The notes: generated by a model from the sequence alone, not told the origin. A DNA stretch of 59,157 nucleotides from Candidatus Woesearchaeota archaeon (GCA_016935265.1 JAFGRH010000043.1:1-59157), one strand, 5' to 3'; positions 43,904-48,269 are shown, counted from the first letter of the stretch. A program made the numbers and translations.

Positions 43904-44179
43904 TCAACCCTTAAACTTGTACTTGCCAGCGCACCTTTCCGAGCAGAAGCGGTAGATGTGGTCGTCATATTCTCTCTCAACAACATCATCTGCCAGAGGC
44001 TTCCCGCAGTTGGCGCATTTGGCTTGTTTCTCCCCTTCCTCGTAGCCCTGCATGAACCCTGCCTCTCTCGGGCTTATCTCAGAATCGGCAACTAGGTCAT
44101 CTCTTCCTTCCTCTTCGTAAACGTCCTCATCGCGCTCTCCTTTCTCCATCATCTCCTCTTTATCATCGTCAAAAGTCAT
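43904..44179 (-). CDS. Acidic protein with a C-terminal TRASH/YHS-like zinc finger.
   Basis: CANCGKPL....(19 aa)....FCSERCAGKY. Confidence 0.5.
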   Translation of the reverse strand: MTFDDDKEEMMEKGERDEDVYEEEGRDDLVADSEISPREAGFMQGYEEGEKQAKCANCGKPLADDVVEREYDDHIYRFCSERCAGKYKFKG

Positions 44180-44879
44180 TTTTCCACCTCTCCAAAATCG
44201 CTTAGGTTTTTCTGGTTCTTGCCGTTAACAAGTTCCTTATACGGAGCCCAGGTCTTCCTGAAGATCTCAGGATGCTTTTCAAAGTTTTCCTTCATAAATT
44301 TTATGGTAAGCGGGTCTGTAAGGTAGCCTGAGCCGAAGTCTCCGTACTTTTTCTTGAGCTTCTCAACCTCATCTTCTCTCGTTACCTTTGCAAGTATCGA
44401 AGCTGCAGAGCACTCCACGTGGTTTACGTCTGCCTTGTGCTCGACGACAGCCTTTATCTTCTTGTTATCAAGCAAGTCCATTAGGTAAGCCTTGTACTTA
44501 ACCACATTGTTGCTCGGGCTGTCTATGACAACGCGTTCAGGCTTCAGCCCGTTTATTATCTGCGCAGACTTGTGCGCCTCAAGCCAGTTAAGGTTAAGCT
44601 TTTTCGAGTTCAGCGCCTCGTCAACTTCCCAGGGCTCTATTATTATGATGCTGTACTCCTTAGCCATCAAAACAATCTTCTTGAAGAGCTCCTTTCTCTT
44701 GCTGTGCGCTAAAAGCTTGGAGTCCTTTACGCCCATCTTCTTAAGCTCATGCAGCTTGGATTCCTCTATCAGGATTCCTGCCATTACCATGGGGCCGATG
44801 ACGGGGCCTTTAGGAGAGCTACAGAGAACTACTTGTTCTGAAACTCACTTCCTGCCTCATCAATGCCGCAAACTAGCAT
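44176..44879 (-). CDS. rnhB: Ribonuclease HII, interrupted by a 38-nt BHB intron. Exon 1 is 44879..44848 and exon 2 is 44809..44176.
   Basis: The ORF track shows only the 204-aa 3' part, which starts inside the conserved N-terminus (MVMAGI). Upstream, in another frame, ATG 44879 encodes MLVCGIDEAG followed by a stop. Removing 44810-44847 joins the frames and yields MLVCGIDEAGRGPVIGPMVMAGI. That contains GIDEAGRGP, the RNase HII catalytic motif I recall. Spliced length is 666 nt (221 aa). Confidence 0.8.
44810..44847 (-). other. Bulge-helix-bulge (BHB) intron within the rnhB mRNA.
   Basis: On the RNA strand the central 4-bp helix is AGGA (44853-44850) paired with UCCU (44815-44812). It is flanked by the 3-nt bulges AGU (44849-44847) and AAA (44811-44809). 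The intron-internal helix is GAGUU (44846-44842) paired with AGCUC (44820-44816), topped by the hairpin AGAAC-AAGUA-GUUCU. Cutting after the second bulge nucleotide on both strands gives the in-frame junction AG|A (Arg). Confidence 0.65.
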
Positions 44880-45158
44880 AGTGTGAACTTTGTATGGCTA
44901 GTTTTAAAATTTTGTCCTTTGGCGAAGTTTCCACTGGTCATTCCGGAAATTCTTCATATTGCACTGGTCAGACACTGGCGTGAAGCATATAAACGCTGCC
45001 AGCTCAGGGAACACGCAGACCGCCTAAATTATGGCTTTTGCTCAAGAGCAAAACCCATTTACGGCGGTCTGCTCAGCGTTCCCTTCGCTAAAGCCGAGAT
45101 TTCTCTACAGAGTGAGAGAAATCTCAACGGCAGATTGAGGTTTCGGAAGGTAAAGACA

Positions 45159-45728
45159 ATGGAAAAAATTGACTTGAATGGCAAGAATTTGGCAGCATTA
45201 GCAAGAATTCACGCGCATCTGTGTGGTGATGGTTGTCTGTGTTGCTACAAGACTGCTGAGAAGGATAGGAAAAATCGAGCGGACATATATTATTTTAATT
45301 CAAATGTTGACTTAATTAAGTCTTTTAGAGCGGATATGAATTTACTTTTTGGCGTAAAAATGACGTACCTGCCTAAAGAAATGCGATTGGGTGTTAAGAG
45401 TCTGCGAATTGCTAAGATCCTTCTCAATCTTAGCGGTTATGGAACTAGGGAATGGAGAATACCTGCTTTAATCAAAAAAGCTTCTGAAAATGTCAAACTT
45501 GAGTGGATTAGGGCTTATAGTCATGACGAAGGTTACTTGCCGAAAGATAGATTTTGGATTAGAATAAAATCTATGAATCCAGAAGGTTTAAAAGATATAA
45601 AATCGCTTTTAGACGCTCTTGGGATAACGTGCAAGATAACAGGCCCAAACTGTGATAAATCATATTATCTAAACATAAAGAAAATGGGTGGCTTGATAAA
45701 TTTCACTAAAAAGCCTTCTAGAAAATAA
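45159..45728 (+). CDS. Free-standing double-motif LAGLIDADG homing endonuclease (I-DmoI-like size, 189 aa).
   Basis: Motif 1 is LAALARIHAHLCGDGCL and motif 2 is LEWIRAYSHDEGYL, spaced about 100 aa apart. I place the start at MEKIDLNG. The ORF-track GTG start at 44883 adds 92 codons with no Met that coincide with strong RNA-like stems. Confidence 0.8.
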   Translation: MEKIDLNGKNLAALARIHAHLCGDGCLCCYKTAEKDRKNRADIYYFNSNVDLIKSFRADMNLLFGVKMTYLPKEMRLGVKSLRIAKILLNLSGYGTREWRIPALIKKASENVKLEWIRAYSHDEGYLPKDRFWIRIKSMNPEGLKDIKSLLDALGITCKITGPNCDKSYYLNIKKMGGLINFTKKPSRK

Positions 45729-45760
45729 GAGCGGCCACAGCCTAAGCCGTGGCGCGCCAG

Positions 45761-45969
45761 TAGCGGGGGGAAGACTTCCTCTCGGATACAAAGCTTGTAT
45801 TCCGGCTTTGAACTTCCGACCTCCACGAGTGGAAGCAATTGCTTACCGCTGTCTGTGGGTTCCTCAACCAAGAGTTGGTTATGAGCCTTCCGAAGCAGCA
45901 GGTCACTGCTACACCGGGCACTCCTAGTTGGGCGGGACAGACTTCCTGTCACCTCTGCCCTACCCCGCT
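45761..45969 (-). tRNA. Initiator tRNA-Met (CAU) gene containing five introns.
   Basis: Introns on the minus strand, in window coordinates:
- 45928-45954: 27 nt, position 15/16
- 45888-45911: 24 nt, position 29/30
- 45861-45879: 19 nt, position 37/38
- 45821-45852: 32 nt, position 45/46
- 45775-45806: 32 nt, position 59/60

The joined exons give a 75-nt product: AGCGGGGUAGGGCAGCUAGGAGUGCCCGGUGGGCUCAUAACCCACAGGUCGGAAGUUCAAAUCUUCCCCCCGCUA.

Its cloverleaf is complete:
- Perfect 7-bp acceptor stem with A1:U72.
- D arm GGGC/GCCC with loop AGCUAGGAGU.
- Anticodon stem GUGGG/CCCAC with three G:C pairs next to loop CUCAUAA.
- T arm GGAAG-UUCAAAU-CUUCC.
- Discriminator A.

A TATA box lies at -25..-32. 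Confidence 0.85.
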
Positions 45970-45992
45970 ATATATAATCGAAATAACAGTTA

Positions 45993-46875: not shown

Positions 46876-46877
46876 GA

Positions 46878-47900
46878 TTAGCGCTCTGCGAGGTGGTGCA
46901 GGTTTCTGCCGCTGAAATTAAGCTCGTAAAGGGAGTCTGAAGGCTTTAATGCAGAACCGCATTCTTCGTTAATCGCCTGCAAAGCTTCAACAACGTGCCT
47001 GCTTCCCCTTGAAGAATTGTAAGAAACATTTATTCTTCCGTCTCTTCCATCATTGGTTGCTATTATGACCTTTCTTTTAGCTCCTGTGTTATGGCCGCTG
47101 TACCCGACAGCCAGGATTCTGCCCCTCAGGAAATTCTCGAGTGCGCTCCTCGGATCAGCAGTATGTGAGAATTCTTCAAGAATCTTTGGGGTCAGCTTTT
47201 CGTGCCCGTTTCCTGAAAAATTATCTGAGCTTACGGTAATCGGAAGCATGTCCTCCACGAAATGGCCGAAGGGGGTGAGCATCTGCTTGCCCTCCATGTA
47301 AAGCTCGTAAACGCCATTTATCTGGTCGAAAAGTTCGTCAAGGAACCTAATGTAATTCTCAGCTCCTTGCTCCCTCGCTTTTCTCGCTTCTTCCGGAAGA
47401 ACTTTTGGTAGAAGCTTGAGCATGTAGTTCTCCTCTACCCCTTTCCCTATTGTAAGAAGGTCAGATATCTTGTCCCTGTAAGTCCTCCCGCTGAAGACCG
47501 TCTTCGGCTTGTCAGGGGTGGAGCCGAGCTGCTCAAGAGGCAGCCCTGAAAGAGAAGCAAGCAAGCCGTCGAGATGGGCTTTAGTGTCTTCTGTTTCATA
47601 CGTGAAATATACAACTTTGTTTGCGAGCCGGTGCACGCCTTCCATGGCGTCAAGGGCTTTCTGCCCGTGCTCCTTAAGTGCTTCCTCAAGCCCCTCTCTA
47701 ATGTCCTCGCCTGATGGAAGCTGAATCCCGTAATCACCGAAAAAAGCTTTGAGAGAGTTAAGCATGCTGACAGAAAGCGCTTCTGGCTCTGAATTATTCT
47801 CTTCTGCGTAAAGCTGTGCCACGGCTTCAATGTTGCCGGCTGTCTTCTGCAAGCGCTCAAGAACAGCATCAACCGTATTCTCCTTGACCGGCTTGTCCAT
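46878..47900 (-). CDS. Hypothetical cytoplasmic protein.
   Basis: ORF track, 340 aa. No motif recognised. TATA GGTTTTTAAACGG (reverse strand) lies about 30 nt upstream. Confidence 0.5.
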   Translation of the reverse strand: MDKPVKENTVDAVLERLQKTAGNIEAVAQLYAEENNSEPEALSVSMLNSLKAFFGDYGIQLPSGEDIREGLEEALKEHGQKALDAMEGVHRLANKVVYFTYETEDTKAHLDGLLASLSGLPLEQLGSTPDKPKTVFSGRTYRDKISDLLTIGKGVEENYMLKLLPKVLPEEARKAREQGAENYIRFLDELFDQINGVYELYMEGKQMLTPFGHFVEDMLPITVSSDNFSGNGHEKLTPKILEEFSHTADPRSALENFLRGRILAVGYSGHNTGAKRKVIIATNDGRDGRINVSYNSSRGSRHVVEALQAINEECGSALKPSDSLYELNFSGRNLHHLAER

Positions 47901-47983
47901 ATTAGTGATAACAGAGATCTGAAACCGTTTAAAAACCTTACCCTTCCAAAACCTTTAAAAGCAGCCCAGCTCTCCTTCTGCAT

Positions 47984-48050
47984 GCGGGAAAAGTCCGTGG
48001 GACTAAAGCGTAGCTTTATGTCCCACTTGAGTGCCTTTACTCAATTTTTC
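47984..48050 (+). ncRNA. Candidate small structured RNA, or a structured 5' leader of the tRNA-Ser transcript.
   Basis: TATA TTTAAAA at 47954-47960 is about 27 nt upstream. A 13-bp hairpin GUGGGACUAAAGC-GUA-GCUUUA(U)GUCCCAC is followed by a 6-bp hairpin UUGAGU-GCCUUU-ACUCAA. A U5 run follows at 48045-48049. Confidence 0.25.
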
Positions 48051-48063
48051 CGCGAAAAATTGT

Positions 48064-48269
48064 GCCGCGGTCGCATAGCCTGGCCATTGCGGTGGATTGC
48101 TAGGAGCCCTGGTTCCTTAGAAACCTACAATGGCACACAGAAATTCACTGTCCGAAAGGGCACGGGAGTTCAAAAACTGCAAACTCAGTTTACACGTTAG
48201 GTCGGCATGAAGCCGACCAGTGCGCTTCGCGCATAACGGGATTGCAGCTTGAAAGTCTCCCCCGCGGCG
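48064..48269 (+). tRNA. tRNA-Ser (GCU) gene containing two introns.
   Basis: Introns are 48103-48142 (40 nt, canonical 37/38) and 48175-48255 (81 nt, T-loop 59/60).

The joined exons give an 85-nt product: GCCGCGGUCGCAUAGCCUGGCCAUUGCGGUGGAUUGCUAAUUCACUGUCCGAAAGGGCACGGGAGUUCAAAUCUCCCCCGCGGCG.

Its cloverleaf is complete:
- Perfect acceptor stem GCCGCGG/CCGCGGC.
- D loop AGCCUGGCCA.
- Anticodon stem GUGGA/UUCAC with loop UUGCUAA.
- Long variable arm GUCC-GAAA-GGGC (type II tRNA).
- T arm GGGAG-UUCAAAU-CUCCC.
- Discriminator G, followed by a U-rich tail. Confidence 0.85.

Follow-up and report, generated by a model that had tools for sequence, protein, structure and literature searches.

The stretch studied here, hereafter the window, is 59,157 nt of DNA from Candidatus Woesearchaeota archaeon (GCA_016935265.1, JAFGRH010000043.1:1-59157). 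It is contig C66 of a metagenome-assembled genome (MAG) of 827 kb in 82 contigs, which is 87.9% complete and has a GC content of 47%. Within about 4 kb, the window carries three genes interrupted by short introns of the bulge-helix-bulge (BHB) type, namely rnhB and the genes for the initiator tRNA (tRNA-iMet) and tRNA-Ser(GCU), together with a gene for a LAGLIDADG endonuclease. The initial annotation had counted eight such introns (one, five and two, respectively) and had placed the endonuclease gene between rnhB and tRNA-iMet; we found all eight inserts where it had put them, and the open reading frame (ORF) of the endonuclease as well (Table 1). Labels are as follows: G000 is the window's genome, other G-numbers are genomes of relatives, C is a contig, and L-numbers are loci of relatives. 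The neighbourhood of rnhB was compared with 80 related loci, i.e. 81 with the window's own. Introns in tRNA genes were located with our own arm-wise memoised solver, which accepts relaxed BHB motifs, and the spliced products were checked with ARAGORN. Motif quality is given as a triple (H, h', h) for the central pairs, the inner helix and the outer helix.

Table 1. Coordinates of the features discussed, with predicted exons and introns
Feature	Contig	Position	Strand	Length	Details
rnhB exon 1	C66	44848..44879	-		ATG at 44879; MLVCGIDEAG + 2 nt, read directly
rnhB BHB intron	C66	44810..44847	-	38 nt	splits Arg codon (AG/A) of GIDEAG-R-GP
rnhB exon 2	C66	44176..44809	-		last base of Arg codon, 210 codons and stop
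TATA-like promoter and conserved structured leader RNA of LAGLIDADG gene	C66	44955..45158	+		
Free-standing I-DmoI-like LAGLIDADG endonuclease gene	C66	45159..45728	+	189 aa	
tRNA-iMet(CAU) gene	C66	45761..45969	-	209 nt	75 nt spliced; solver and ARAGORN (tRNA-Met)
tRNA-iMet exons	C66	45955-45969, 45912-45927, 45880-45887, 45853-45860, 45807-45820, 45761-45774	-		
tRNA-iMet intron 1	C66	45928..45954	-	27 nt	D-loop 15/16, (4,2,2)
tRNA-iMet intron 2	C66	45888..45911	-	24 nt	anticodon stem 29/30, (4,7,2)
tRNA-iMet intron 3	C66	45861..45879	-	19 nt	canonical 37/38, (4,0,2)
tRNA-iMet intron 4	C66	45821..45852	-	32 nt	variable loop 45/46, CCAC/GUGG central helix only, (4,0,0)
tRNA-iMet intron 5	C66	45775..45806	-	32 nt	T-loop 59/60, (3,1,5); T stem is the outer helix
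tRNA-Ser(GCU) gene	C66	48064..48269	+	206 nt	85 nt spliced
tRNA-Ser exons	C66	48064-48102, 48143-48174, 48256-48269	+		
tRNA-Ser intron 1	C66	48103..48142	+	40 nt	canonical 37/38, (3,1,8)
tRNA-Ser intron 2	C66	48175..48255	+	81 nt	T-loop 59/60, (4,1,5), perfect UUCA/UGAA core
Ser 59/60 paralogue in tRNA-His(GUG)	C57	~10693-10767			97% identical over 62 nt
Ser 59/60 paralogue in tRNA-Arg(UCG)	C42	~11807-11893			
Ser 59/60 paralogue in cryptic tRNA-Lys(CUU)	C65	~6895-6975			98% identical over 45-nt two-hairpin core
Other leader RNA copy	C3	278-431			
Other leader RNA copy	C31	16327-16489			
Other leader RNA copy	C58	26640-26808			
Other leader RNA copy	C74	9445-9623			

Read without splicing, rnhB gives MLVCGIDEAG and then a stop, and a 204-aa ORF continues in a different frame. 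Excision of the 38-nt insert fuses the two parts of the Arg codon and yields GIDEAGRGPVIGPMV; the spliced gene reads GIDEAGRGP like its uninterrupted orthologues, which read MLVCGIDEAGRGP in the region of exon 1, and the first catalytic motif is thereby restored. Exon 2 matched the Pfam family RNase_HII from its first residue (E 3.2e-37, profile positions 9-197 of 199). The splice motif consists of a 4-bp central helix (AGGA/UCCU), two 3-nt bulges (AGU and AAA) and an inner helix of 5 bp, and an unconstrained minimum-free-energy fold of the region reproduced it.

About 68 of the 80 related loci contained an uninterrupted MxxxGIDEAGR-GPVIGP, and 10 contained an insert at the window's site. Counting the window, the rnhB intron was present in 11 of 81 loci, with a length of 27-45 nt and always in the same codon, after the second base. 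All four positions of the central helix were paired in 10 of these 11 introns, and three of four in L016. Across the 11 loci, the central helix covaried with the wobble base of an exon Gly codon (AGGA/UCCU, CGGA/UCCG, UGGC/GCCA, CGGU/ACCG and others), and this covariation is therefore evidence of selection for splicing; the inner helices were unrelated in sequence. On these comparative grounds, we regard rnhB as a new protein-coding host for BHB introns. The intron was scattered on the rnhB tree and no more clustered than shuffled labels; it changed state at least 5 times when only well-supported branches are considered, and 10 times on the best tree.

Removal of the five inserts from tRNA-iMet gives a predicted product that is a textbook archaeal initiator tRNA: it has A1:U72, its anticodon stem is closed by three G:C pairs, the anticodon is CAU and the T-loop reads UUCAAAU. 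The strand of this gene is easy to misjudge, as its acceptor ends read identically on both strands; the plus strand was rejected, as it offers no sensible anticodon arm. With strict motifs, the solver returned no solution on the minus strand; several of the iMet motifs are relaxed, and the one at 45/46 is the weakest of the eight in the window. On our reading of the sequence, removal of intron 29/30 would turn the outer helix of intron 37/38 into a full 5-bp anticodon stem, and intron 29/30 must probably leave before the 37/38 motif is complete, which would impose an order of splicing.

Including the window, tRNA-iMet was located in 37 loci, with 0-5 introns at the same five sites and of related sequence; L005, L027 and L038 also have five. 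Orthologues of intron 15/16 were found in L014, L016 and L021, those of 37/38 in L004, L001 and others, and introns homologous to 45/46 and 59/60 in L044. Intron 29/30 differed at 1 nt in L004 and L023, and its helix was kept by compensatory changes in L007, L001 and L044. The spliced product was identical to that of L044 at 74 of 75 positions and to L014 at 72 of 75, the stretch of L014 that matches exons 2-6 of the window being contiguous DNA; identity with the intron-less L029, L032 and L071 was 65 of 75. The assembly contained a single iMet-like locus (score 126, compared with 76 at most elsewhere).

For tRNA-Ser(GCU), the solver returned a single solution, and ARAGORN called the spliced product tRNA-Ser(gct), of class II. 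It was identical to spliced L007 at 80 of 85 positions, and the orthologous genes of relatives contained 0-3 introns. The 3' half of the 37/38 intron was conserved in L007, L004, L014, L023 and L044. We also observed that this conserved half is complementary to the 3' strand of the D-arm of its own tRNA in the window and in L004, L007, L014, L023, L044 and L020, the pairing being GCCAUUG:CAAUGGC in the window and GGUAUCG:CGAUACC in L004, L014 and L023. The compensatory change suggests that exon and intron form a long-range helix in the precursor.

The intron at 59/60 of tRNA-Ser behaved differently from the other seven of the window, none of which had a second copy anywhere in the genome. It belongs to a family of four copies, all at position 59/60 of a tRNA, with aligned segments that are 84-98% identical. 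The two-hairpin core, which as we read it includes a UUCG hairpin, was 93-98% identical across copies. One host, tRNA-Lys(CUU), had escaped the solver owing to an A-C mismatch in its T stem. Among 40 relatives, only one had a match to this intron, which was partial (25 nt). It looks as though one intron was recently copied to a single T-loop position in four tRNAs, and the high identity of the core suggests that the intron either spread very recently or has a function of its own as RNA.

At each of the eight junctions, three or four of the four central pairs could form with the bulges in register, and five junctions had a good inner or outer helix too. After splicing in silico, every scored stem of the window's tRNAs was fully paired. 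The completeness of these stems, as well as the compensatory changes that keep the helices of the rnhB and iMet 29/30 introns, argue against artefact or decay, i.e. that the genes would be pseudogenes or assembly chimeras with intact copies in the unassembled 12%. A fragmented MAG (82 contigs, 87.9% complete) would leave room for such copies; yet the assembly has no second iMet-like locus, and independent MAGs from different studies share the gene order and the intron sites. We consider artefact or decay most improbable.

The genome encodes a single splicing endonuclease, EndA. It has an N-terminal as well as a C-terminal domain, and its 177 aa correspond to the size of the alpha4 type. In DPANN archaea, alpha4-type EndA with an L3 loop goes along with increased disruption of tRNA genes and incomplete predicted tRNA sets (Kaneta 2018, PMC5829648), and incomplete sets in some DPANN and Asgard lineages have been flagged as a sign of hidden disruption (PMC5829648). 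The ligase RtcB, present in 20 of 20 relatives, is considered below. In several of these relatives, we observed that rtcB matches its Pfam family in two or three pieces, about 30-100 nt apart or with stops in them (G007:C14:42966-44290, G010:C2:112722-114070, G012:C4:3559-4882, G011:C3:12520-13876, G008:C21 and G020:C69). This pattern resembles that of additional mini-introns, here in the gene for the ligase on which splicing depends.

We next consider how far this intron load extends beyond the window. In the window itself, ARAGORN found no tRNA, and neither did Rfam at the gathering threshold over its whole length or at E values up to 10 over 43800-48500. The initial annotation had seen no other RNA genes in the window, which agrees with ARAGORN, Rfam and the solver and still allows for cryptic genes. 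In the whole, 88%-complete genome, 13 tRNAs passed the Rfam cut-off, and the 20 genomes of relatives, which include some that are 97-99% complete, gave 9-42 tRNA matches each at E <= 0.001. In the window's genome, 28 credible tRNA genes with 31 introns were recovered by a search that allows for introns and takes an intact GTTCRA T-arm and a 7-bp acceptor as its seeds. At least 19 of the 28 contain an intron: 9 have none, 12 have one, 5 have two, tRNA-Asn has four and tRNA-iMet five. The commonest non-canonical site was 59/60. We also noticed three class II tRNAs, with a long variable arm, whose anticodon loops read GAA (two genes) and AAG (one), at C26:6119-6204, C53:769-868 and C57:3001-3090. 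Archaeal Leu and Ser tRNAs do not usually have such loops, which may reflect unrecognised short introns or odd decoding.

These results bear on the two explanations that the initial annotation had offered for the density of introns. The first, a local burst in which the eight introns would stem from one or a few BHB elements that were duplicated or transposed within the 4 kb, could account for the packing of eight introns, out of roughly 36 or more that are known genome-wide, into 0.5% of the genome's length. However, none of the 28 pairwise comparisons of the eight introns indicated similarity (p <= 0.05), seven of them lack another copy in the genome, and many relatives have orthologous introns at these sites. 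Local gain therefore did not hold up, and we regard it as very unlikely. Paralogy failed likewise among the window's eight introns and was borne out genome-wide for Ser 59/60 only. The second explanation, a genome-wide or lineage-wide expansion of introns, is supported by the 28 genes and 31 introns of the census and by the small number of tRNAs that are recognisable in the 20 relatives. Synteny pointed the same way: tRNA-iMet, rnhB and tRNA-Ser(GCU) are conserved neighbours in the relatives, with the same intron sites occupied, and in the 80 loci ARAGORN alone detected, no more than about 4 kb from rnhB, 25 genes for tRNA-Met and 14 for tRNA-Ser(GCU). The window looks dense because these three genes are conserved neighbours and because tRNA-iMet is the most intron-laden tRNA of the family.

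We thus think it very probable that the three genes are real and functional, and that their introns belong to a lineage-wide proliferation of short, ORF-less BHB introns rather than to a local burst. Under this explanation, transcripts of rnhB, tRNA-iMet and tRNA-Ser would be cut at the bulge-helix-bulge by EndA and then rejoined by RtcB, and the introns would have proliferated in the tRNA genes of the lineage and spilled over into a few protein genes. Most of those in the window would be old and vertically inherited, with frequent loss, because orthologous copies exist in relatives; at least one, the Ser 59/60 intron, would have arisen by recent copying among four tRNAs.

Several observations weigh against lineage-wide proliferation. 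Three motifs are relaxed, iMet 45/46 consisting of a 4-bp central helix only and iMet 59/60 and Ser 37/38 having three of four central pairs. RtcB was not found in the 87.9%-complete assembly. The census misses perhaps 15 or more of the expected tRNA genes, so that the intron load is a lower bound. Splicing itself we infer from the motifs and the restored products. Relaxed motifs are also frequent by chance, with 703 candidates in 251 nt, and on a block-shuffled genome the solver gave 3 false 'tRNAs' that were accepted by ARAGORN. Each of these had five introns; no false model with four or fewer arose. The five-intron call for tRNA-iMet therefore rests on orthology. Finally, a four-intron parse of this gene exists, which was obtained by spliced alignment with a high intron penalty and in which introns 3 and 4 merge into one of 51 nt, with a G-A mismatch in the anticodon stem. 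We rejected it because, in relatives, the 37/38 and 45/46 introns are separate and flank a conserved ACCCACAG exon.

The endonuclease encoded between rnhB and tRNA-iMet contains two LAGLIDADG motifs (HLCGDG and SHDEGY), which align with both motifs of PI-PfuI. Across 30 homologues, D24 and D123 were invariant and E124 nearly so. The protein scored 21.1 bits with Pfam LAGLIDADG_3, under the cut-off of 22.5 bits, and many homologues do carry PF14528. Its AlphaFold model (pLDDT 95.8) matched I-DmoI, endonuclease domains of inteins and I-Tsp061I in Foldseek with a probability of 1.00, the TM score with I-DmoI being about 0.65-0.7. Homologues form more than 120 clusters in Woesearchaeota, other Nanobdellota and Nanohaloarchaea. 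We considered whether the cassette could itself be a large BHB intron and rejected this, as no convincing motif joins 44860-45060 with 45700-45800 on either strand; a group I intron was also rejected, no match having been found.

The stop codon of the endonuclease gene lies 32 nt from the 3' end of tRNA-iMet, on the opposite strand, and the same geometry was found in L007, L008, L010, L014, L022, L057 and L088. Genes of this short class occur patchily in DPANN, always at the 3' end of tRNA-iMet and on the opposite strand: they abut it in 7 of the 37 loci with a located tRNA-iMet, the window included, with six gaps of 1-36 nt and one overlap. They did not track the introns of tRNA-iMet, which numbered about 2.6 on average with or without the gene in these 37 loci, and no single iMet intron was common to all loci with the gene. 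A different arrangement was observed in L090, from Nanohaloarchaea (GCA_042217505.1, JBDGSN010000009.1, 3060-3586, minus strand), where tRNA-iMet contains a canonical 37/38 BHB intron of 452 nt, (4,3,5). This intron encodes a 145-aa LAGLIDADG_3 ORF on the same strand. In L090, a homologue of the window's endonuclease abuts the 3' end of tRNA-iMet, and rnhB and EndA are next door.

The leader RNA upstream of the endonuclease gene was found by nhmmer in 5 genomic copies, that of the window spanning 44998-45156, and also in the relatives L005, L007, L008, L009, L010, L011, L012 and L014. It is about 180 nt long, with three helices and invariant loops, and 12 of its 35 predicted pairs showed compensatory changes in an alignment of 9 sequences. 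It lies behind a TATA-like box and directly 5' of the start codon of dissimilar LAGLIDADG ORFs (amino-acid identity of 25% or less), and with 72-86% nucleotide identity it is more conserved than the proteins downstream. It matched no Rfam family. The leader may control translation of the endonuclease.

A second LAGLIDADG class is associated with rnhB. An ORF of about 340 aa, on the same strand and ending at the start codon of rnhB, was present in 7 of 11 loci with the rnhB intron vs 1 of 66 without it; in the latter (L078), the Arg codon is replaced by Lys. In five phylogenetically independent pairs, the endonuclease gene went the same way as the intron in 3.8, the opposite way in 0, and showed no difference in 1.2 (sign test, p 0.06-0.125; five pairs are too few for significance). 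Elsewhere in the window's genome, carB contains a 21-nt in-frame insert with a stop (C31:17515-17535), between GEAGE and FDYSGSQA, which forms a perfect mini-BHB with a GGCG/CGCC central helix, the bulges AG/A and AT/U and an inner helix of 4 bp. A LAGLIDADG ORF upstream of carB ends at 17446, and carB starts about 17 nt after it. The rnhB and carB introns are the only protein-gene introns that we read in this genome, in which no genome-wide scan for them was made. On C3, a 277-aa ORF behind a leader RNA (C3:426-1399) runs into the 5' end of tRNA-Asn(GUU), in which the solver placed four introns (15/16, 30/31, 37/38 and 44/45).

These arrangements raise a rival, or complementary, explanation, namely that ORF-less BHB introns are gained or kept through LAGLIDADG genes, either by co-conversion with the gene or by splitting of its site (collaborative homing). 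In this view, the locus is a nest of LAGLIDADG homing endonuclease genes, the density of introns near an endonuclease gene would be partly local, and such traffic could operate alongside the lineage-wide proliferation. It would be consistent with the distribution of the long ORF, present in 7 of 11 intron-bearing loci vs 1 of 66, with an intron that is scattered on the tree and accompanied by the endonuclease gene in 3.8 of five independent pairs and in none contradicted by it, and with the position of the rnhB and carB introns, each of which has, at a distance of a few hundred nt at most, a LAGLIDADG gene with the common leader RNA. The four-intron tRNA-Asn that abuts a leader-LAGLIDADG cassette, the short gene next to tRNA-iMet in 7 of 37 loci and in L088, the ORF inside the 452-nt intron of L090 and the phage precedent discussed below point in the same direction. 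On the other hand, rnhB of the window has the intron and lacks the long-class gene, the short class does not track the number of iMet introns, the sign test is underpowered, and most tRNA introns of the genome have no endonuclease gene as a neighbour. We therefore hold this explanation as a possible one, short of an even chance. The link implied by the initial annotation was thus recovered for rnhB in relatives, with a different and longer LAGLIDADG class, and was not recovered for the window's own gene and the number of iMet introns.

In its general form, this idea would be that in Woesearchaeota and other DPANN archaea BHB introns without an ORF pass from genome to genome and reach new hosts, protein-coding genes such as rnhB and carB among them, together with LAGLIDADG genes, free-standing or intron-encoded, the intron splitting the conserved target and being co-converted. 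We put it forward tentatively, with some doubt. If this is true, the mobility of protein-spliced archaeal introns would have its first mechanism at the level of DNA, and it would be explained how genes come to be shredded into exons that are shorter than a typical nuclease recognition site. The link between endonucleases and introns is plausible but unproven; intron transposition, as judged from the paralogous copies, is demonstrated for one family.

Two other non-coding gaps of the window (6844-7390 and 7727-8226) gave no Rfam match at E <= 1 and contain small ORFs and a truncated Dph2 fragment. The latter is an 84-aa ORF at 7975-8226 (plus strand) with an abrupt end, directly followed by an EamA-type transporter gene; we take it to resemble the N-terminal part of the diphthamide synthase Dph2. 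It is probably a gene remnant and not an intron case.

A recent preprint on Nanobdellota ascribed the missing tRNAs of Woesearchaeales to possible split tRNAs (2026, 10.64898/2026.05.13.725050). A sole tRNA-iMet gene in exons of 8-16 nt explains why standard tools return incomplete tRNA sets in this group, and annotation of DPANN genomes needs intron-aware calling of both tRNAs and coding sequences. The locus bears on how archaeal BHB introns are gained and why they accumulate in some lineages. It provides a new putative protein-coding host with clean covariation evidence (rnhB), what we read as direct evidence of recent intron copying to four tRNAs (the 59/60 family), and a testable link between BHB introns and homing endonucleases.

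Multi-intron tRNA genes and intron transposition are known from Thermoproteales. They were reportedly described by Sugahara in 2008 and by Fujishima in 2010, and to our knowledge the maximum in this order is three introns per tRNA gene. As in Thermoproteales and in DPANN cases, the introns described here are short, ORF-less, with BHB or relaxed motifs, and lie in the D-loop, the anticodon stem, the variable loop and at 59/60; as in Thermoproteales, several occur in one gene and paralogous introns share one position of different tRNAs. The differences are the five introns in a single gene and the DPANN host, with a single EndA of alpha4 size rather than a heterotetrameric enzyme. The maximum is also three in the red alga C. 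merolae (PMC3728597), and up to five introns per tRNA gene have been reported in Asgard archaea (2026 preprint, 10.64898/2026.10.13.758758). In the literature that we searched, the published maximum per gene was three until this preprint. The window's tRNA-iMet reaches the same number.

With respect to protein genes, the BHB intron in the cbf5 pre-mRNA of Crenarchaeota was reportedly described by Watanabe in 2002. It is an established protein-coding case (Yokobori 2009, PMC2738675), and cbf5 is the only established protein-coding host in the literature that we searched. The rnhB intron resembles it in being a BHB intron in a protein gene that would require the tRNA-splicing machinery, with patchy gain and loss among relatives. 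Unlike that of cbf5, it occurs in DPANN, measures 27-45 nt, interrupts the catalytic DEAGRG motif 32 nt from the start codon and, in most carriers, has an adjacent LAGLIDADG gene.

Like I-DmoI and the LAGLIDADG enzymes of archaeal rRNA introns, the endonuclease of the window has a monomeric two-motif fold of about 190 aa, occurs in an archaeon and is associated with BHB introns. Unlike I-DmoI, it is encoded by a free-standing gene that has a promoter of its own and a conserved structured leader and that abuts the 3' end of a tRNA on the opposite strand, whereas in L090 a LAGLIDADG ORF is inside the iMet intron. In phages, mobE/I-TevIII illustrates collaborative, or trans, homing by a free-standing endonuclease together with an ORF-less group I intron (PMC2790892; reviewed in PMC2988022). 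The introns described here would be protein-spliced (BHB) rather than self-splicing, and their partnership with the endonuclease is one that we infer from co-occurrence only; in both systems, a free-standing endonuclease gene is the neighbour of a gene whose highly conserved motif is interrupted by an ORF-less intron.

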